A DNA stretch of 64,000 nucleotides, taken from NCBI GenBank assembly GCA_022749995.1, contig JAKIWO010000001.1, positions 90,330 to 154,329 of the forward strand. The letters are read 5' to 3'. Positions 449 to 42,063 of this stretch are shown here, piece by piece. A program made the position numbers and the translations under genes. The stretch's first letter is position 1, and the number at the start of each line of letters is the position of its first letter. Origin of the DNA: Thermoplasmata archaeon. Its GTDB lineage: Archaea > Thermoplasmatota > Thermoplasmata > Lutacidiplasmatales > UBA184. The notes beneath the pieces are model-generated. The model saw only the letters and a program-made list of their open reading frames with translations, searched no databases and had not been told where the DNA came from.

Positions 449-1984
449 GTGCGTTCCTGGATGACCCTCCGCCAGCGTTGGCGCCGCTCTCGCCGGGCGC
501 AAGTGAGCGCGGTGGCGGTGGTCCTCGGACTCCTCCTGGTCACCACGTACATTGCCAACTTCCTGTCGCAACAGCTCCCGAGTCAGATGCAGGAGCTCGA
601 ATTCGAGCACACCCTGCTGGTGGAGGACCAGTTGGGCCGGGTCCAAACCGCAGTCCTCGCGGAGGCGCAGAACCCGACGCTACCGATCACCATCACCTCG
701 CCCGTTACGCTGGGCTCTGGCTCGGTCCCGCCGTTCGCACCGGCCTCGACGGGCGCGCTGACCCTCGACCCGGCCTCGGACCTGGTCCGGGCGCAGTACT
801 CGATCGCCAAGGTGCTGCCCCGTGCGCCGGTGTGGGGGTCCGGCTCCGCCTGCCTTGCCGGGGGGAGTGGCACCTGCGTCCTTGGCGCCGGGGTGTTCTT
901 CTACAACGCCTCGGCCAACAGCTCGACCTACACGGTGATACTCTCGGGCGCCACGAGTACGCTCTTCTACAATCTCTCGGGCAACCACGACACCCTAACC
1001 GTCACGCAGAGCGGGCCCGATGCGTTGTACCTCCAGATCATCGTCGTGGGCTCGAACGATACCGTGACCGTCTCCGAGACGGGCGCCCTCGTGGGTAGCT
1101 CCCACTACGACGTGGAGTTCTACGGCCAGAACGACCGCTTGAACTCGCTCATTGCCGGAGCCCACACCGGCGCAGGCTCCACGAGCTTCCTGACCCGCTT
1201 CGTCGGCGACCAGGGGTCGTTCTGCCCCGCCGCGAACTGGTCGGCGACCGATTCGCTCAACCTGGTCGACACCAGCAATGCGTTCAACGCCAACACCACT
1301 TGGTGGAACAACGTGGGCTACACGAGCCCGCCCGTCACGCACGCCCTGTTGGCTCCTGGGAGTTCGGCGACCTTCTCCAACCGGACCGGCTTCCTAGGGT
1401 GCGGGTTCAGCCATGCCTCGGTCATGAGCTACACGAGCGATTTCCAGTCCGGGCTGAGGGTGCACCTCGCCAACCGGTACAACCCGCCGGAGGACGTCGT
1501 CTACGAGGACGGCGCAGTGATCCTCTCCCACCCGGCCTCGGGCACCTTCATGACCGGGCCACCCACGATCTCGATCACGCGCTCGCTGACGGGCTTCTAC
1601 ATCGCCAATTTCACGATCGTGAACATGGTCGTGAGCAATGCCCAGAACGGTACCTCCGAGGAGGGAGGGAGCACCGCCGGCGTGAGCACCCATCTCATCG
1701 GCTTCGACCAGTTCCAGGTGCTGGACAACGTGAGCACTGGCAACGCCGTCGCTGGCCTGTGGCTCAACTTCACCACCCCGTACCCCGGCGCCTGGGAAGG
1801 CTACCTCGAGCAATTCCCGGCGACGGTGCTCGTCAACGACGCGGTGACCTGCACGACGGGCCCGCTACCCCCGGGCTTCACCTGCCTCATCCCGCCGCAG
1901 GGCCAGATCTCCCACCTCTCGGCCGAGTTCCTCGTGACCGAGTTCGAGTTCACCGCCATCACCATCTCCACGACGATCTCCTAG
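449..1984 (+). CDS. Secreted or membrane-anchored hypothetical protein with a prepilin-like (class III) signal and many N-glycosylation sequons
   Basis: The N-terminus RRSRRAQVSAVAVVLGLLLVTTYI is a basic stretch, a small residue, then a hydrophobic helix. There are numerous N-x-S/T sites and no catalytic motif. The alternative start is the ATG at 461. Confidence 0.6.
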   Translation: MRSWMTLRQRWRRSRRAQVSAVAVVLGLLLVTTYIANFLSQQLPSQMQELEFEHTLLVEDQLGRVQTAVLAEAQNPTLPITITSPVTLGSGSVPPFAPASTGALTLDPASDLVRAQYSIAKVLPRAPVWGSGSACLAGGSGTCVLGAGVFFYNASANSSTYTVILSGATSTLFYNLSGNHDTLTVTQSGPDALYLQIIVVGSNDTVTVSETGALVGSSHYDVEFYGQNDRLNSLIAGAHTGAGSTSFLTRFVGDQGSFCPAANWSATDSLNLVDTSNAFNANTTWWNNVGYTSPPVTHALLAPGSSATFSNRTGFLGCGFSHASVMSYTSDFQSGLRVHLANRYNPPEDVVYEDGAVILSHPASGTFMTGPPTISITRSLTGFYIANFTIVNMVVSNAQNGTSEEGGSTAGVSTHLIGFDQFQVLDNVSTGNAVAGLWLNFTTPYPGAWEGYLEQFPATVLVNDAVTCTTGPLPPGFTCLIPPQGQISHLSAEFLVTEFEFTAITISTTIS

Positions 1985-2036
1985 TCAGCGTCGACAGGGT
2001 TATCCTGCCTCCGGGCTCCGCTCTCAGGGTAAGGGA

Positions 2037-3602
2037 GTGGCCCCCGAAGCTACCGGACGGATCCCCGTCCGACGGGCCCTCGTCGCGGTCGACGACAAGC
2101 GGGCGTTGCCCGAGTTCGCCCGCGAGTTGATTCCTTTTGGCATTGAGCTCTGGGCTACCTCGGGCACGCTGAAGGCCCTCTCCGCGGCGGGGGTGGCGGC
2201 CCAACCGGCCGAGCAGCTCACCGGCATCGCCGACTGGTTCGGCGGCCGGGTCAAGACGTTGCATCCGGGGGTGCTCGGCGGCGTACTGGCGCCGGCGACC
2301 GCCGAGGGCTCGAAGGAGCTGAAGGCCCGCGGGCTGCTCGCGTTCGACCTGGTCGTGGTCAACTTCTACCCGTTCGAGGCACGCGCCCGGGAGCGACCGA
2401 CCGACCCGGGGCTCGTCGACTCCATCGACATCGGCGGCGTCACCCTGGCCCGGGCCGCCGCCAAGAACCACGCGCGAGTCGCCGCCATCAGCGACCCCGA
2501 GGAGTATCCGGTCGTCGCGGCCGAACTGGCCCAGCTCAAAGGCCACCTGTCCGCCGAGCTGCGTCGTGCCCTCGCCGCACGGACATTCCTGCGGGTCGAG
2601 GCGTATGATCGCGCCATCGCCCGGGCGTTTACGATGGCCGAGTCTGCCGGAACGCTTCCCGGCCATCTCGAGTTCGAGCGGGAGGAGACACCTCTCCGCT
2701 ACGGGGAGAATCCTCACCAGGCGGCAGCGCGCTACGTGGCCAGCGACCGAACCGCCGGCGCGCTCACCCCGCTTCCCTTGCGGGTCCTCAAGGGCGCTTC
2801 TCTGTCCTACACGAACCTGCTCGACCTGGAGACCGCGCTCTCCGTCGTCGCCGAGTTCCCGACCCCCACGGCCGCGGTGGTCAAGCACGCCACCCCCGTC
2901 GGGGTAGCCTCAGGGCTCACGCCCGCCGAGGCAGTGCAGCGGGCGCTCGCGACGGACCCGGTCGCCCGTTATGGCTGCGTGCTTGCGCTCAACCGGCCGT
3001 TCGACGCGGCGACAAGCGCCGAGTTGCACGGGGTGTTCGTGGACCTACTGGCCGCCCCCTCGTTCTCTCCAGAGGTGATGCCGCTCCTCGAGCGCCGGAG
3101 CAAGCTCAAGGTGCTCGAGGTGACGCCCCCGGCCATCGACCAGCGCCGATGGGAGGGCCGGACGGCGCTCGGCCGTCTCCTGCTGCAGGAGTACGACCTC
3201 CGTCAACTCGCTCCCGGGGAACTGAGACCCGTCACCGGCCGGACCGCCAGCCCCGAGGAGCGGTGCGCACTCGATTTTGCCTGGAGGGTGGTGCGCCACG
3301 CCCGCTCGAACGCGGTCGTGATCGCGCGCGGCTCGGCCACGGTGGGCATCGGCTCCGGTCAGCCCTCGCGCGTCAAGGCCGTGGAGGACGCGGTGGCCGT
3401 GGCGGGGGATCGGGCCCGTGGGGCGGTGCTCGCCTCGGATGCGTTCTTCCCGTTCGCCGACGGGATCGAGGCCGCCGGCCGCGGCGGCGTGGCGGCGATC
3501 CTCCAACCCGGCGGCAGCGTCCGGGACGCCGAAGTGATCGCAGCGGCCGAGCGGCTCGGCATCGCGATGTTCGTCACGGGTTGGCGCGTCTTCCGCCACT
3601 AG
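2037..3602 (+). CDS. purH: Bifunctional AICAR formyltransferase / IMP cyclohydrolase
   Basis: MGS-like N-terminus (ALVAVDDK ... TSGT), the GGRVKTLHPGV motif, and full-length similarity to PurH. Confidence 0.95.
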   Translation: MAPEATGRIPVRRALVAVDDKRALPEFARELIPFGIELWATSGTLKALSAAGVAAQPAEQLTGIADWFGGRVKTLHPGVLGGVLAPATAEGSKELKARGLLAFDLVVVNFYPFEARARERPTDPGLVDSIDIGGVTLARAAAKNHARVAAISDPEEYPVVAAELAQLKGHLSAELRRALAARTFLRVEAYDRAIARAFTMAESAGTLPGHLEFEREETPLRYGENPHQAAARYVASDRTAGALTPLPLRVLKGASLSYTNLLDLETALSVVAEFPTPTAAVVKHATPVGVASGLTPAEAVQRALATDPVARYGCVLALNRPFDAATSAELHGVFVDLLAAPSFSPEVMPLLERRSKLKVLEVTPPAIDQRRWEGRTALGRLLLQEYDLRQLAPGELRPVTGRTASPEERCALDFAWRVVRHARSNAVVIARGSATVGIGSGQPSRVKAVEDAVAVAGDRARGAVLASDAFFPFADGIEAAGRGGVAAILQPGGSVRDAEVIAAAERLGIAMFVTGWRVFRH

Positions 3603-3616
3603 GCGAGCGCGCTCGG

Positions 3617-37178: not shown

Positions 37179-37222
37179 ACGGAGGGCGCGGGCCCCCCTG
37201 GACCTCGGCGCTCGCCCCGGGG

Positions 37223-37233
37223 CGTCCCGGGCG
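37223..37233. repeat. Direct repeat CGTCCCGGGCG (left copy), putative target-site duplication
   Basis: A perfect 11-mer repeated at 39749-39759, immediately outside the inverted terminal repeats. Confidence 0.5.
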
Positions 37234-37251
37234 GCTTTGTAGGGGAAACCC
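37234..37251. repeat. Left terminal inverted repeat
   Basis: GCTTTGTAGGGGAAACCC compared with the reverse complement of 39731-39748 (GCTTTGTAGGCTAATCCC). Confidence 0.5.
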
Positions 37252-37290
37252 GGTGGTGTAGGAGAATCGACACGGTTGTAGGAGAAACCC
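37238..37290 (+). repeat. Three direct copies of TGTAGG(G/A)GAA at 19-20-bp spacing (subterminal repeats)
   Basis: TGTAGGGGAAACCC starts at 37238, TGTAGGAGAATCGA at 37257 and TGTAGGAGAAACCC at 37277. Confidence 0.5.
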
Positions 37291-37336
37291 CCGGGGGCTC
37301 CGGTCCTTGGGGGCGGGCTAGATTCTCAGCCAGCCG

Positions 37337-37618
37337 CTAGATTCGCTCGTACTCTCCAGGCTGAACCTGCGTGATCTTTCCCCGGCGAACGCACTTGTCG
37401 AGGACTCGCATGGCGAAGTCACCGGCCACCTTTGTCACATCGCTCGACGGATCCGCCTTTGGTCGGCCCGGTTCGCGAGGTCTGTCAGTGACATAGAAGC
37501 TGAAGACTCGCTCCAGCGATTGCCAAAGTGCCCCGGGCCGAACCTCACTCCCTTTGACGGGACAAGATCCATCGTGTGATTCAGTGCGTAGTTGAAAGGA
37601 TCGGCAGCGTCGGGGCAC
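37337..37618 (-). CDS. Hypothetical small protein, possibly the 3' part of a frameshifted gene; C-terminus wHTH-like
   Basis: It ends VLDKCVRRGKITQVQPGEYERI, a wing-like G..Y motif. The overlapping frame 37435-37644 reads plausibly upstream (MVETMFGVVCPDAADPFNYALNHTMDL). Confidence 0.3.
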   Translation of the reverse strand: MPRRCRSFQLRTESHDGSCPVKGSEVRPGALWQSLERVFSFYVTDRPREPGRPKADPSSDVTKVAGDFAMRVLDKCVRRGKITQVQPGEYERI

Positions 37619-37946
37619 ACCACACCGAACATCGTCTCGACCATCAAGCCTGAATCTCGACAGAGGACAAGAAACCGGCGGCTAGTGAGCCGGCGAACTG
37701 CATTGTGGTCATTTGGGCGTCCCAGCCCCCAGCACAATCCCGGCTGGGCGCCGGGATTGCGTCGCCAGCCGGGCGTCACCGGGTGGCCCCCACATCGCGC
37801 CGAGGGTCGCGGCCTGAAGCCCGCGCTGGCCGATCTGGCTGGCCGGCATGCCCGCGTTCGGTGCGGAGAGGAGACATTGTTGGCCCCCATTCACCAGCGG
37901 GGTCGACGTGGCGTGCGGTCTAGAAACCCCAGCACTTACGTCTCAT

Positions 37947-38642
37947 CTAGCTCTTCTCGAGGTAGCGATTCAGGAATGCCGGTTTGACCACCTTCACTCT
38001 GGGGAATCTGGCTTCGATCTCTGCCTTGTGAGCATACATGGCCCGTTCAAGTATCAGAAAGGCGACTGAAACGCCCTCCTTGTCGCCTATCTCTTGGCAC
38101 GCCCGGAGATGAGCCAAATCGGGCCCATTGACCTCACGTATTTCTGGATTCAGCGGAGTGTAATCGGGCTGGGGCCAGTTCAGGAATTCCACAGCGCTTG
38201 GGCAGCTAGCGAGTTTAGCAGACTCTTTCCAGTGGAGCGCGCTCGCAGCGACGTAGGCAAAGACATTTCTCAGTGGGGCCGTCGGATTGCTCGTCACAGC
38301 CCTTGAAACCTCCTCCTCGATTGCGTCCAAGAAAAGCAACCTTGGGTAGCCCTTCTTCGCACGGACAGCCATAAGGAGCTGTTCAGCCCCCTCAAGTGCC
38401 GCTGGAGAGCCGTTCTCAATGGGAATGGCTGAAGTCACCACCTGCAGATCCTCGTAGACTTGGTCAAGAAGGTTGAGTTTTCGCACCCGCTCGACATCGA
38501 CACTCGGGGGTGCTACTACCTTGACTCCGGCGGCGACTGCGCGCGATAGTGCGCTGGCCGCCATCGCAGATTTGGGATCCTGGGGCCCGAAGCCGATAGC
38601 CAGCAGGATACCGGTGTCAGGAACTAGTATTCCAACACTCAC
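37947..38642 (-). CDS. PIN-like nuclease-fold protein with a large internal insertion
   Basis: GILVPDTGILLAI carries the PIN beta1 Asp (D9). VKVVAPPSVDVERV carries E51. NGPDLAHLRACQ carries D175. FLILERAMY has E199 where PIN domains usually have T.D. The end is VKVVKPAFL. The start overlaps the upstream stop by 4 nt. Confidence 0.55.
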   Translation of the reverse strand: MSVGILVPDTGILLAIGFGPQDPKSAMAASALSRAVAAGVKVVAPPSVDVERVRKLNLLDQVYEDLQVVTSAIPIENGSPAALEGAEQLLMAVRAKKGYPRLLFLDAIEEEVSRAVTSNPTAPLRNVFAYVAASALHWKESAKLASCPSAVEFLNWPQPDYTPLNPEIREVNGPDLAHLRACQEIGDKEGVSVAFLILERAMYAHKAEIEARFPRVKVVKPAFLNRYLEKS

Positions 38643-39646
38643 GCAGGGGCCTCGTTCGCGAGGGCCTCCGCAAGTGCTCGGCCGAATAGGGAAAGGGAGT
38701 CCGGGTCCCGGGTGGCTTCGCTGACTCTCGAGCGACCGAATCGGGAGAGAAGTGCCGCTTGCAATCCCTTTGTGGCTTCCGTGACCTTCGCCTCTACCGG
38801 GCGAAGCTCCACACCTTCGAGCCGTGCTTGTTTCCAGGCCTTGGAGATGTGAAGGTCTTCAATCGACTCGGAGTTCCAGGCGTCTACCGTGAGAACGAGC
38901 CGAGAGTACGCATCCTGCACACGGTCTCCAAAGATGCCCAGCTCAAGGATTGCCTTCCTCGCAGCGCGGCGTTCGTTGTCGAGAGCGCGCCGGGATGTTG
39001 ACTCAACCACGGAATCGAGGGCCTGAGGCAAGACAGCCTTCTCGGCTGCGTCGAACAGCGCCGTCTCCCAGAAGTGCGCAGCCGCGAGAGAGTCTGCGAG
39101 CTTTGTTGGCAGATCGCCGCTAACCAGGCAAACAAAACCCCAGAGAAAGCTGCGGTCTCGTTGCACACGCAGCAGAGCAAACCGTCGACGGAAGGATTCG
39201 ACCTCGATTCTAAACGACCGAACGCCGTCGTCGATTAGTTCCTGACTTCGGCGAGGTCCCTCGGAGTTAGTCCACGACTCAATTATGTTTACAGTCTCGA
39301 TGTCAATCTTCTGCCGAAGCTCTCGGTGGGGGTCCTTGTCGTTGAGCTCCTTCAGCCTGGAGAATACAGATTCGAGATTGAACCGGGGAGGGAGATTCAG
39401 TCCTTGGAGACGCTCCTTCATGAGAAGCGTGTCCTGATTGGCAACAAGCGCTAGCAGCTCTTCGTGCGATTGCCTATTCGGGACAGAAGTCCGCGTCCGC
39501 AGACGGCTTTTCTGGCGGCCCAATGGCAGATCGTGCATGGCCCCAGTCGACCAGGAAGTCGCCATTCCGATGTCACTGAAGTCAGCATTTGGATGGACAG
39601 CCAGCAATCTGCACCCGCACTCAACACACCCCCCACTGCCTATCAA
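38639..39646 (-). CDS. Hypothetical, predicted all-helical protein (up to 335 aa), no recognised domain
   Basis: A long ORF with a TTG start at 39646. Alternative ATG starts lie at 39565 and 39538. It is charged and helical with no motif I can assign. Confidence 0.6.
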   Translation of the reverse strand: MIGSGGCVECGCRLLAVHPNADFSDIGMATSWSTGAMHDLPLGRQKSRLRTRTSVPNRQSHEELLALVANQDTLLMKERLQGLNLPPRFNLESVFSRLKELNDKDPHRELRQKIDIETVNIIESWTNSEGPRRSQELIDDGVRSFRIEVESFRRRFALLRVQRDRSFLWGFVCLVSGDLPTKLADSLAAAHFWETALFDAAEKAVLPQALDSVVESTSRRALDNERRAARKAILELGIFGDRVQDAYSRLVLTVDAWNSESIEDLHISKAWKQARLEGVELRPVEAKVTEATKGLQAALLSRFGRSRVSEATRDPDSLSLFGRALAEALANEAPA

Positions 39647-39730
39647 ATCTGCTTCCAGCGCGGTCTTGTCACTTTGGGACCTATCGGCCCACGTTTGCGC
39701 GACGTAGCACGACGGGAGGGACCCCCTCAG

Positions 39731-39748
39731 GGGATTAGCCTACAAAGC
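39731..39748. repeat. Right terminal inverted repeat
   Basis: GGGATTAGCCTACAAAGC. Confidence 0.5.
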
Positions 39749-39759
39749 CGTCCCGGGCG
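39749..39759. repeat. Direct repeat CGTCCCGGGCG (right copy)
   Basis: Identical to 37223-37233. Confidence 0.5.
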
Positions 39760-39762
39760 CAT

Positions 39763-39770
39763 GGTTTAAG
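39763..39770 (+). promoter_or_regulatory. TATA-like box GGTTTAAG
   Basis: It lies 39 nt upstream of the ATG at 39809. Confidence 0.35.
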
Positions 39771-39771
39771 T

Positions 39772-39790
39772 AAGCGAGATTCGCTTTTTT
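39772..39790 (+). terminator. Hairpin AAGCGA-gat-TCGCTT followed by a T-run
   Basis: A perfect 6-bp stem plus TTTTTT. If the insertion is removed, it would lie about 70 nt downstream of the MOSC stop codon. Confidence 0.35.
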
Positions 39791-39808
39791 CTATCCTCAC
39801 GGACCCCC

Positions 39809-40111
39809 ATGCATACGTACGTCGACCTCTACTTCTCCCCCAACGGGGAGAACCCGCTCGCCATCGCCGACCGCCTGCGGCGCCAGGCCGGAGTCTCTCT
39901 GATCGTCGGGCCGCACGACATCGCCTTCGACTGGCAGACGGTGGAGGAGTTCCGCACGAAGCTCTCGGCGATCCACGACGCCCTCCAGGGCTCGGACGCC
40001 AGCTACCGGGTCGAATCGGTGGAGGAGAGCCCTGAATTCATCGAACCGACCACCTGGCCGCCGACGATCGTCCGCAGCCAACCCTCCCATCCGGGCTACA
40101 GCCCGGCCTAG
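39809..40111 (+). CDS. Hypothetical small protein
   Basis: A 100-aa ORF with host-like composition and an upstream TATA-like box. No motif was recognised. Confidence 0.5.
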   Translation: MHTYVDLYFSPNGENPLAIADRLRRQAGVSLIVGPHDIAFDWQTVEEFRTKLSAIHDALQGSDASYRVESVEESPEFIEPTTWPPTIVRSQPSHPGYSPA

Positions 40112-40141
40112 ACCCCCACCCCCCCGCTGCGAGTGGAACCT

Positions 40142-40633
40142 TTAGCGGGGGCTCCAGCCCTCGCTTTCCAGAGGAATTGCGTCGGTGGCGAGCCGCGCGC
40201 GCACCGCCGGGACGATCGGTTTCTTCTCTCCCTTTTCGTAGTCGTAGCAGACGATCACCGTTCGACCCCGGGCGTAGAGCGAGGTGGAGTCCTCCGGGCG
40301 ATGAAAGCGATACACTAGTGAGAAGCTGGTCCGTCCTATCGGAGCTGCCGGAGCCACCTCCCCTACCATCTCCGTACCATACCCTGCCGGTGCCAGGTAC
40401 CTACAGCTTGCTTCCGCCAGGATGATGTCGAGCTCCCTCGGGTCACTCGCTCCGATGAGCGGCATGTAGTACGCGCAGCGCAGCGTTTCCATGAACGGAA
40501 AGTAGGTGGCATGGTTGAGATGGTTGAGCGCGTCGACGTCGTGATACGTGACCACGAACCGTTGCCGCAGGGGCCACGGATCGGTCCGCGGGGCACTCGG
40601 AGCCGTCGGACTGTCGCTCACGGCGGCGCGCAC
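40142..40633 (-). CDS. Acyl-CoA thioesterase (4HBT/YbgC-like hotdog fold)
   Basis: V.YHDVDALNHLNHATYF.FME.....Y is the typical hotdog thioesterase N-terminal motif. Confidence 0.8.
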   Translation of the reverse strand: MRAAVSDSPTAPSAPRTDPWPLRQRFVVTYHDVDALNHLNHATYFPFMETLRCAYYMPLIGASDPRELDIILAEASCRYLAPAGYGTEMVGEVAPAAPIGRTSFSLVYRFHRPEDSTSLYARGRTVIVCYDYEKGEKKPIVPAVRARLATDAIPLESEGWSPR

Positions 40634-40737
40634 CGGGGGTAGCTATATGGGCCGAACGGCCTCCCACGCCATTCCCGCCGTGAACCGCGAGCCTCCCCGC
40701 ACCGTTCGAGTGGAAACGGGGGGGTGGGGGGGTAGCC

Positions 40738-42063
40738 GTGGCTGACCCGAGCGCCCCGCCGCGGGAGGAGATGGCTCAGGTGGTCGAGCGGATCCGTTCG
40801 GCCGTCAAGGCCCACTCCGCCCGGTTCGAGCGGTCGATCCCGCTCATCGCGAGCGAGAACCTGTTGAGCCCGTACGCGAAGGAGCTGCTGATCTCCGACT
40901 TCCATTCGAGGTACGCCGAGGGGCTGCCCGGCGAGCGGTACTACGAGGGGAACGAGCAGGTCGACGAGGTGGAGCGAATCTGCCTCACCCTGGCGAAGGA
41001 GCTGTTCCGCTGCTCCTTCGCCGACGTCCGGCCGATCTCCGGCACCGTGGCCAACCTGGCCGTCCTCAAGGCGCTCGCCGCCCCTGCCGATCCCGTGGGC
41101 ACCACGCGCCTCTCCGACGGCGCGCACATCTCGAGCGCCGTCTTCGGCGCCTTCGGGCTGCGTGGCGTCAAACCCGTCTACTACGCCTGGGACGAGGAGC
41201 GGATGACGATCGACGTGCCGAAGACACAGGCGATCCTCCGGGAGGCACGGCCGAAGCTCTGCCTGTTCGGCCTGTCGCTGTTCCTGTTCCCGCTCCCGGT
41301 GCGGGAGCTCGCGCCGACACTCCAGGAGATCGGCGCGACCGGCTGGTACGACGGCGCGCACGTCCTCGGTCTGATCGCCGGCGGAGAGTTCCAGGACCCG
41401 CTGCACGAGGGCTGTTCGGTCCTCTCCGCCTCCACCCACAAGACGCTGCCCGGGCCGCAGCACGGGATCCTCTTGGGGGAGAGCGCCGACCCGGAGCTGT
41501 ACCGCAAGCTCGGCTCCGCCGCCTTCCCCGGCGTCACGAGCAATCACCACCTGCACGCGATGGCGGCGCTCGCGGTGAGCCTCGCCGAGGCCCGCGCGTT
41601 CGGCCGGGCGTACGCCCGGCAGGTGATCGCCAACGCACGTGCGCTGGCCGGGGCGCTCGCCGAACGCGGGTTCGACGTGCTCGGTGAGAAGCTGGGCTAC
41701 ACGGCGAGCCACACGATCGCCGTCCGGGTCGGACGGGAGGGGGGTGGCGCGCCGGTGGCCGCGCGGCTCGCCGAGGCCGGCCTCATCACGAACAAGAACC
41801 TGCTCCCGGGCGACAAGAGCCCGAAGGAACCGCAGGGGGTCCGGCTCGGCACGCCCGAGGTCACGCGCCTCGGGATGACCGAACCGGAAATGGTCCGCAT
41901 CGCCGAGCTGTTCGACGCCCTCCTGCACCGCAACGCTCCGGCGGAACGGATCGCACGGGAGGCCGGCGAGTTGAAGCGGGAGTTCACCCGGTTGCAGTAC
42001 TGCTTCGCCGCCGGCGAGGCGGCGTACCGGTACTACGACCTCGTCGGCCGGCCGGCCGCCTAG
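40738..42063 (+). CDS. glyA: Serine hydroxymethyltransferase
   Basis: LIASENLLSP, RYYEGNE.VDEVE, and STHKTLPGPQHG (PLP Lys). Confidence 0.95.
   Translation: MADPSAPPREEMAQVVERIRSAVKAHSARFERSIPLIASENLLSPYAKELLISDFHSRYAEGLPGERYYEGNEQVDEVERICLTLAKELFRCSFADVRPISGTVANLAVLKALAAPADPVGTTRLSDGAHISSAVFGAFGLRGVKPVYYAWDEERMTIDVPKTQAILREARPKLCLFGLSLFLFPLPVRELAPTLQEIGATGWYDGAHVLGLIAGGEFQDPLHEGCSVLSASTHKTLPGPQHGILLGESADPELYRKLGSAAFPGVTSNHHLHAMAALAVSLAEARAFGRAYARQVIANARALAGALAERGFDVLGEKLGYTASHTIAVRVGREGGGAPVAARLAEAGLITNKNLLPGDKSPKEPQGVRLGTPEVTRLGMTEPEMVRIAELFDALLHRNAPAERIAREAGELKREFTRLQYCFAAGEAAYRYYDLVGRPAA

Follow-up and report, generated by a model that had tools for sequence, protein, structure and literature searches.

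A horizontally acquired archaeal gene pair encoding a putative PIN-like nuclease with a helical insert and a large partner protein: a candidate toxin-antitoxin or defence module

A 64,000-nucleotide (nt) stretch of a contig from a Thermoplasmata soil archaeon (GenBank assembly GCA_022749995.1, contig JAKIWO010000001.1, positions 90,330 to 154,329; hereafter the window) carries on its minus strand two overlapping genes, of which the upstream one encodes a partner protein of 322 amino acids (aa) and the downstream one a 231-aa protein with the features of a PIN-like nuclease interrupted by a helical insert. On balance, the pair is probably a horizontally acquired toxin-antitoxin or abortive-defence module, VapBC-like in its general plan and non-canonical in its components. 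In the following we describe the family and the predicted fold of the putative nuclease, the partner protein and its coupling to the nuclease, and the DNA on which both genes are found, and we weigh this proposal against other explanations.

Sequence family and predicted fold of the 231-aa protein

The gene for the 231-aa protein (37947-38642, minus strand) begins with a GTG codon and encodes a PIN-like product with a helical insertion and a putative active site formed by D9, E51, D175 and E199. An exhaustive HMMER search of 1.84 billion cluster representatives recovered 29 relatives at E≤1e-3, 18 of which were found at E≤1e-10; nearly all of them have 226-250 aa and align with the window protein from end to end at 24-55% identity, about 25 being full-length. 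The insert in the middle of the protein is a conserved part of the family and not a peculiarity of the window protein. In an alignment of 25 family sequences E51 is invariant, D9, T10, G19, D22, E87, D175 and V216 are each at least 90% conserved, and position 199 is occupied by Asp or Glu in every sequence. E109 is likewise strongly conserved and, together with D22 and E87, belongs to the further conserved acidic residues of the protein. The preliminary description of this DNA, made before any database search, had singled out D9, E51, D175 and E199 as PIN landmarks; their positions proved correct, and since the quartet is conserved across the 25-sequence alignment it can be considered a family trait. 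Two long repetitive relatives, P0022 and P0025, which match the helical region only and do so in many stretches, were set aside as compositional.

Neither of the two window proteins has a match in Pfam, NCBIfam, PADLOC or PHROGs (E≤10), nor among the sequences of the PDB. When 5.8 billion proteins were searched by a word index, self matches alone came back, annotated as 'hypothetical protein', and the use of the family profile did not change this. Sub-threshold matches to Pfam PIN and PIN_12 were obtained for 6 of the 25 nuclease members, in the correct N-terminal register, the best E-values being 0.016 for PIN and 0.05 for PIN_12, and the family consensus scored 11.3 bits against a Pfam cut-off of 23.6 bits. 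Beyond these two families no Pfam entry, PIN_5 included, matched any nuclease member at E≤1. No VapC-type open reading frames (ORFs) were found in the approximately 860 kb of collected loci.

PIN domains contain three to five acidic residues, namely an Asp ending strand S1, a Glu on the helix that follows S2, an Asp starting the crossover helix H4 and an Asp or Glu located after S4. The structure of the 231-aa protein was modelled with AlphaFold2; the single sequence gave a predicted local distance difference test score (pLDDT) of 39 and an unusable model, and the family alignment gave a confident one with a mean pLDDT of 93.7 and a predicted template modelling score (pTM) of 0.88. The N-terminal part of this model contains a strand at 3-8, helices at 10-21 and 25-37, a strand at 41-44 and a helix at 46-72. 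Helices at 82-97, 103-118 and 124-145 follow as the insert, then comes a short bridge at 151-152, and the C-terminal part is built from a helix at 173-189, a strand at 192-196, short helices, a strand at 216-219 and a helix at 221-228. In this model D9 is predicted to follow S1, E51 to start the helix after S2, D175 to start the crossover helix and E199 to be placed after S4. The PIN fold is a Rossmann-like alpha/beta/alpha fold with a parallel sheet S1-S5 and the crossover helix H4, and S1, S2, H4 and S4 are the most conserved elements of its core (Matelska et al., PMC5499597). The order of elements in the model corresponds to this core.

The spacings between the four residues are 42 (D9-E51), 124 (E51-D175) and 24 residues (D175-E199), compared with 37-38, 54-56 and 18-21 residues in canonical VapC proteins (PMC5499597). 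The second of these differences, 124 against 54-56, leaves some 70 residues extra in the sequence. The helical insert of about 70-100 residues that parts the second catalytic element from the third is a constant feature of the family; the figure of about 100 residues given in the preliminary description referred to a segment that is real, conserved and helical in the model, but the excess over a canonical VapC is closer to 70. A Glu at the fourth position, where PIN domains usually have an Asp, has precedent in H. influenzae VapC1 and in R. felis VapC2 (E120) (PMC5499597).

Searching the PDB with the model by means of Foldseek gave no match below E = 1e-3, and the matches of appreciable probability were almost all PIN folds. 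They comprise HARP (8ssf_A, E 0.056, probability 0.63, and 8kd9), a chain of a M. tuberculosis toxin-antitoxin complex (7vwo_A, probability 0.82, TMt 0.47) and the PIN domain of Rrp44 (5k36_K, probability 0.75), together with AF1683 (1w8i), PH0500 (1v96) and VapC15 (4chg). The top match in BFVD is a phage protein annotated as 'PIN like domain' (probability 0.95, TMq 0.41, E 0.021), with a flap endonuclease and XRN ranking lower in that search. The quartet is conserved and sits on the expected elements of the model, and PIN folds rank first in both structure searches; membership of the 231-aa protein in the PIN-like superfamily is therefore very probable, as its landmarks had first suggested. 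It belongs to no curated PIN family, and with its relatives it forms a new, rare family within that superfamily.

The partner protein and its coupling to the nuclease

The partner gene is located directly upstream on the minus strand (38639-39607), and its TGA stop overlaps the GTG start of the nuclease gene by 4 nt in a GTGA junction at 38639-38642 (minus strand); the ORF listing and the sequence itself confirm the two reading frames and the overlap reported in the preliminary description. A Shine-Dalgarno-like GAGG (38650-38653, minus strand) lies 7 nt 5' of the nuclease GTG, inside the codons for the conserved C-terminal ...EEA of the partner. The GTGA stop/start overlap occurs in 7 of 10 loci, and GAGG or GGGG 7-8 nt 5' of the nuclease start is also found in the loci L002, L008, L069, L070, L071 and L072. 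To judge from the junction, the overlap represents translational coupling, in which the internal GAGG presumably plays a part.

The longest ORF of the partner extends to a TTG at 39646 and would give the 335 aa first proposed as its upper length; that length stands for the ORF, but the alignment of homologs favours the 322-aa product. The start is likely the TTG at 39607, since the homologs begin with ML(S/V/T)L and align there. The NCBI annotation of the same gene (L3K04_00680, window 38639-39421) starts at an ATG at 39421 and encodes 260 aa, about 62 N-terminal residues short of the product of the TTG at 39607, and the alignment of the partner with its homologs covers the N-terminal region left out of the 260-aa call. 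Both ORFs are genuine genes and not chance ORFs, because the nuclease has 29 relatives and homologs of the partner are encoded directly upstream of those relatives.

Eleven distinct members of the nuclease family were looked up on their contigs, and a homologous partner gene was found upstream in all eleven family members whose contig reaches upstream; the co-occurrence of both genes, together with the conserved overlapping junction, bears out their description as a pair. The window partner shares 19-33% identity with its homologs over the full length. Complete copies have 271-333 aa (327 aa in L002, 309 aa in L003, L004 and L005, 328 aa in L006, 323 and 329 aa in L008 and L009, 322 aa in L069, 271 aa in L071 and 333 aa in L072), and truncated copies are those of L007, L010, L070 and the contig of P0012. 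The pairwise identities of nuclease and partner across eight loci are strongly correlated (r = 0.92, Mantel p ~0.002), and the two genes are therefore inherited together and diverge together. They are not accompanied by a third conserved gene: the left 700 nt of the island described below have no similarity to the small genes that adjoin the pair elsewhere.

The conserved motifs of the partner, in the numbering of the 335-aa form, are an Arg-rich patch at about 45-55 and LPPRF at about 88-92 on the N-terminal side, W193-E194, S218-R219...D223, D255-x-W257-N-S259 and K269-x-W271 in the middle, and PFAR(323)xLF...EEA at the C-terminus, with R323 near-invariant. Charged residues make up 28-29% of the protein with a balanced net charge, only modestly above the 23-26% of neighbouring genes, so that 'highly charged', as it had been called, overstates a real but small difference. 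Searches with the partner homologs and their consensus gave nothing above noise in Pfam, NCBIfam and PADLOC. With 25 nuclease and 10 partner members as queries, PADLOC-DB v2.0.0 returned scattered single matches at E 0.002-0.025. CARF and Cas_APE2256 matches of single partner homologs were judged to be due to chance because each concerns one sequence at E 0.002-0.014. As far as these sequence comparisons reach, the partner is a family without detectable relatives among known families, which agrees with the earlier statement that it matches no family that could be recognised (Pfam, NCBIfam, PADLOC, PHROGs and PDB sequences).

The island and the surroundings of the pair

The gene pair lies within 2.93 kb of extra DNA (37179-40111), together with a 100-aa ORF and about 700 nt (37252-37946) that seem to be non-coding or degenerate. 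The corresponding site is empty in the sister metagenome-assembled genome L026 (Thermoplasmata SubAcS15-67), in which the gene order, PQQ-MOSC-thioesterase-SHMT, is that of the window, but with only about 74 nt between MOSC and thioesterase; a junction motif, CCCCCACCCCCCCG(T/C)TGCGAGTGGAAC, is common to L026 7505-7530 and to the window at 40112-40141. The GC content drops to 0.55-0.60 in this pocket (0.58 for the island) against about 0.71 in the rest of the window. The empty site of L026 and the foreign GC content of the island indicate horizontal acquisition, and here the preliminary description is borne out.

The same description had spoken of an element bounded by terminal inverted repeats, which the analysis of the island borders supports only weakly. 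There is one imperfect inverted repeat of 30 nt, with a left arm at 37222-37251, at the left GC transition, where TGTAGGAGAAACCC-like direct repeats continue to about 37293, and a right arm at 39731-39760, in the 160-nt region 5' of the partner gene. The arms are complementary at 24 of 30 positions (80%) and lie exactly at the GC transitions, and the 11-nt repeat core GGCTTTGTAGG is found at the two island borders and nowhere else in the 64 kb, a count of two being reached in 2 of 100 shuffles. The right arm might just as well serve the operon as promoter or operator element. No transposase, integrase or recombinase is encoded within 37179-40111, no target-site duplication was found beside the repeat arms, and the window contains neither tRNA genes nor a second copy of the candidate element. 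No comparable inverted repeats flank the pair in six other loci, and no DNA similarity to the island ends was detected elsewhere. In addition, the extra DNA reaches past the right arm and takes in the 100-aa ORF, at 68% GC.

Several other features of the island and its borders were noted. The 100-aa ORF (39809-40111, plus strand), also called by NCBI, separates the right arm from the thioesterase gene; the L026 site lacks it, its GC content of 0.67-0.68 is near that of the host and unlike the 0.58 of the island, and the only hint of a family for it came from Trypco2 (E 0.22). The ORF may have been acquired separately, or it may be a host gene that L026 has lost. The approximately 700 nt at 37252-37946, 3' of the nuclease gene, contain no clean gene. 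Overlapping minus-strand ORFs at 37337-37618 (93 aa) and 37435-37890 (151 aa) resemble a frameshifted remnant, '...MVETMFGVVCPDAADPFNYALNHT...' in one frame continuing as '...FYVTDRPREPGRPKADPSSDVTKVAGDFAMRVLDKCVRRGKITQVQPGEYERI' in another, with a weak DUF5817_CT match at E 0.18; no relatives of this remnant were found in the other loci of the pair. At 37700-37900 a stretch of 71% GC stands inside the low-GC island and includes a perfect 8-bp hairpin, AATCCCGG...CCGGGATT. A structured RNA in the GC-rich region 37690-37946 was considered and rejected, there being no Rfam match and fold z-scores of -0.7 and -0.8 against shuffled controls.

A TGTAGG(A/G)GAAACCC-like unit is directly repeated three times just inward of the left arm (37236-37293), as TTGTAGGGGAAACCC, GTGTAGGAGAATCG and TTGTAGGAGAAACCCCC, and a related copy, TTGTAGGCTAATCCC, is present in the right arm on the opposite strand; these units could be protein-binding sites. 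A C-rich motif, CCCCCACCCCCCCG.TGCGAGTGGAA, occurs inverted on both sides of the thioesterase gene (40099-40154 and 40689-40744), with arms of 56 nt that are 71% complementary, and occupies the same intergenic position in L026 (7505-7530). It may be a shared regulatory or terminator element.

The pair recurs in about a dozen other metagenomic contigs, where its GC content matches its surroundings, and all family members are single-copy singletons. In accordance with the earlier suggestion of an accessory defence module, the pair is often found in other contigs beside defence or mobile genes. A full-length Type IIG restriction-modification enzyme (1.5e-282) is encoded near it in L008, an MmeI-type methyltransferase and a resolvase in L002, SoFic (3e-115) in L069, a PDC-S09 nucleotidyltransferase in L071, and a type II methyltransferase, a DDE transposase and a MazE-like gene in L003. 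In L072 (132-1963) the pair is directly preceded, on the same strand, by genes for a HEC-01A-type AAA_15/AAA_21 ATPase (431 aa; PADLOC E 6.5e-52) and for a 176-aa protein with no family assigned, and all four might belong to a single defence locus.

Two related high-GC archaeal contigs, L069 (pair at 1955-3615) and L070 (2-1350), carry the pair at the same position beside CDC48. Between them identity amounts to 93% for CDC48 and to 82% and 73% for two hypothetical neighbours, compared with 44% for the nuclease and 42% for the partner. Such divergence is, on the sequence comparison, typical of conflict systems, by either rapid evolution or cassette replacement, and suggests that the site is a hotspot exchanging variants of the module or that the module evolves very fast.

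Related systems, proposed mechanism and alternatives

In VapBC operons the antitoxin gene is found immediately 5' of the toxin gene and is co-transcribed with it, with an overlap of 1 or 4 nt (PMC5499597). The present pair resembles this arrangement in its PIN-like nuclease, in which the D-E-D-(D/E) quartet keeps the canonical order and the first and last spacings are near-canonical, in its upstream partner gene with a 4-nt overlap, and in its scattered, horizontally transferred and single-copy occurrence. It differs in the size of the nuclease (231 against about 130-140 aa), whose Glu and third acidic residue are separated by about 70-100 additional helical residues, in the scores of the nuclease, below the Pfam PIN thresholds, and in a partner of 322 aa without an AbrB, RHH, HTH or Phd domain or any similarity to antitoxin families. 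Four nuclease members also show weak, in-register matches to PIN_12/DUF4935, a VapC-like cluster to which no function is assigned (E 0.05-0.09), of 13-14 bits against a gathering score of 32. In DUF4935 proteins, which come almost exclusively from bacteria, the C-terminal region is alpha/beta (Matelska et al., PMC5499597), whereas the window family has a PIN core interrupted by a helical insert and a separate partner.

By E-value the best fold match in the PDB is HARP, the minimal protein-only RNase P of the PIN_5 family (8ssf, 8kd9). Both are PIN proteins of about 190-230 aa whose sheet has four parallel strands and whose nuclease domain carries an inserted helical domain (PMC8266387). However, the catalytic set of HARP is D7, D138, D142 and D161 with a DxxxD pair (Aq880; PMC8266387) and that of the window protein D-E-D-E; the DxxxD pair is absent from the latter because D175 is followed by L-A-H-L, with Leu at D175+4. 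Moreover, the window protein has no Pfam PIN_5 match and its Glu51 is VapC-like, and the HARP insert consists of two helices that mediate dimer and dodecamer formation compared with three or four in our model. HARP is a stand-alone homo-oligomeric housekeeping enzyme, whereas the window nuclease always occurs with a coupled partner and is located on foreign DNA.

Two PIN-based antiphage systems, DS-3 and DS-5, have been validated in E. coli (DefensePredictor, 10.1101/2025.01.08.631726). In DS-3 a PIN domain split by an intervening region works as an antiphage effector, and DS-5 pairs a PIN RNase with a larger protein that defence requires and that does not act as an antitoxin; in both systems the catalytic PIN residues are needed for defence (10.1101/2025.01.08.631726). 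Compared by description, DS-5 resembles the present pair in having two genes, for a PIN nuclease and a larger second protein, but its partner contains DUF5830 and an AcrIF4-like domain, and no Pfam domain, DUF5830 included, was detected in the window partner family. Both systems also differ from the window family, which occurs in archaeal-type and soil metagenome contigs, in their validation in E. coli.

We propose that the product of the downstream gene is a PIN-fold endonuclease that depends on metal, belongs to the VapC-like structural group and most likely cuts RNA, and that its active site would be formed by D9, E51, D175 and E199. Nuclease and partner would be made from one mRNA, coupled and in a fixed ratio, and the partner would bind the nuclease, keeping it inactive or controlled. 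The C-terminal helix occupies the PIN cleft in VapB and FitA antitoxins (PMC5499597). By analogy, the conserved C-terminal helix of the partner (PFAR-x-LF...EEA, R323) may be placed in the nuclease cleft, and this suggestive likeness makes it, with R323, the prime candidate for an inhibitory element. Loss or degradation of the partner, or a virus-triggered rearrangement, would then leave the nuclease free to cut cellular or viral RNA, with arrest of growth as the consequence. In this mechanism E87 and E109 on the helical insert may add to the partner interface or to the binding of substrate or metal. Nuclease activity, the RNA substrate, the physical interaction, the direction of neutralisation and the antiviral role are what we infer here. 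More tentatively, the pair may represent an undescribed, mainly archaeal antiviral system. The 'split' PIN nuclease would then be under the control of a large helical protein that belongs to a new fold family and acts as sensor or regulator, and the insert, E87 and E109 among its residues, would form the interface for regulation or for selection of the substrate.

A number of results weigh against the proposal of a PIN-based toxin-antitoxin or abortive-defence module. Concerning the nuclease, the profile of its family found nothing among the PDB sequences, and the gathering thresholds of the Pfam PIN families (PF01850 PIN, PF16289 PIN_12, PIN_5 and others) were not reached. The Foldseek E-values of 0.02-0.09 and template modelling (TM) scores of 0.27-0.47 give moderate and not decisive support, and the quartet was placed on the model by the order of the secondary-structure elements. 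The PIN-like assignment has thus gained the conservation of the quartet, a confident model and PIN folds at the top of the PDB and BFVD searches, but no single search gives it at conventional significance. The partner, for its part, is three to four times larger than VapB-type antitoxins, and no DNA-binding domain or antitoxin family was detected in it (Pfam, NCBIfam, PADLOC). No PADLOC model matches either window protein (E≤10), and the island sits in the window among housekeeping genes, outside any defence island. With 29 matches in 1.84 billion representatives the family is very rare, searches of phage and plasmid records with both proteins (tblastn) gave no match, and neither IMG/VR nor metagenome contigs, scanned by pattern with a single protein or with a five-sequence alignment, yielded relatives. 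Because of this rarity and of the absence from the phage, plasmid and IMG/VR collections, the association with mobile elements is indirect.

The explanation closest to our proposal, differing from it solely in the role of the partner, is a two-component antiviral system in which the partner acts as sensor or activator, both genes are needed and the nuclease alone would be non-toxic, as reported for DS-5. The large size of the partner (322 aa), its many conserved motifs of its own and the failure to detect an antitoxin-type DNA-binding domain are consistent with such a role, as are the precedent of DS-5, with its PIN RNase and larger essential non-antitoxin partner (10.1101/2025.01.08.631726), the defence neighbours in several loci and the fast turnover at the syntenic L069/L070 site. 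However, the partner-first order with a 4-nt overlap is the classic antitoxin-toxin layout, and the partner homologs have no match in PADLOC or in Pfam, DUF5830 included; we regard this possibility as the less likely one. The resemblance to HARP and to the PIN domain of the exosome protein Rrp44, both among the top PDB fold matches, could instead point to a non-toxic enzyme of RNA processing or turnover, of the kind of HARP/RNase P, Fcf1/Nob1 or Rrp44, with the partner as scaffold or specificity subunit. HARP is likewise a four-stranded PIN protein with an inserted helical domain (PMC8266387), and the stable chromosomal position beside CDC48 in L069 and L070 would fit a housekeeping function of this type. 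Such an enzyme is nevertheless improbable in view of the patchy and very rare distribution, the absence of the pair from L026, the foreign GC content in the window, and the 42-44% identity of the pair between genomes whose neighbouring genes share 73-93%; to this are added the lack of a PIN_5 match and of the HARP DxxxD pair, and the fact that HARP acts alone as a homo-oligomer while the window nuclease always has a partner.

Finally, the pair itself might be the mobility or maintenance machinery of a small element bounded by terminal inverted repeats, formed by a PIN-like DNA nuclease or transposase-like enzyme and a cofactor. The 30-nt imperfect inverted repeat at both GC boundaries, the nature of the island as an insertion relative to L026, the lack of any other recombinase in the 2.9 kb and the action of some PIN-like nucleases (FEN-like) on DNA are in line with this view. 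Against it stand the six other loci without flanking repeats, the island ends without counterpart elsewhere, the missing target-site duplication and the continuation of the extra DNA past the right arm into the ORF of 68% GC, and furthermore the members are single-copy, the pair of L069 and L070 is syntenic and not scattered, and separate recombinases are encoded near it in L002 (resolvase) and L003 (DDE transposase). Taken together, this makes a transposition role very improbable, and a non-canonical, VapBC-like toxin-antitoxin or abortive-defence module remains the reading that we prefer.

PIN nucleases are the most abundant class of prokaryotic toxins, and they have been validated as antiphage effectors only recently. 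To our knowledge, almost everything established about PIN effectors derives from small VapC proteins with small DNA-binding antitoxins in bacteria. The arrangement described here is a variation on the known theme of PIN toxin-antitoxin and defence systems, and its logic is familiar. Its design is different, in that a conserved helical module breaks up the PIN core and the partner coupled to it, of 322 aa, has no detectable relatives; the pair is found in soil archaea and turns over quickly at conserved chromosomal sites. Practical limits on its immediate reach come from the rarity of the family, with about 30 members in 1.84 billion protein clusters, and from the want of a host in culture; very small as the family is, the novel architecture and the unmatched partner merit structural and functional follow-up. 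If the partner is a large sensor or regulator of a new fold family, it would represent a new class of PIN-effector partner, distinct from both the VapB-type antitoxins and the partner of DS-5. If it proves to be a new nuclease inhibitor or infection sensor, the pair would reveal a new regulatory principle for PIN effectors and would be among the few candidate innate-defence modules specific to archaea.

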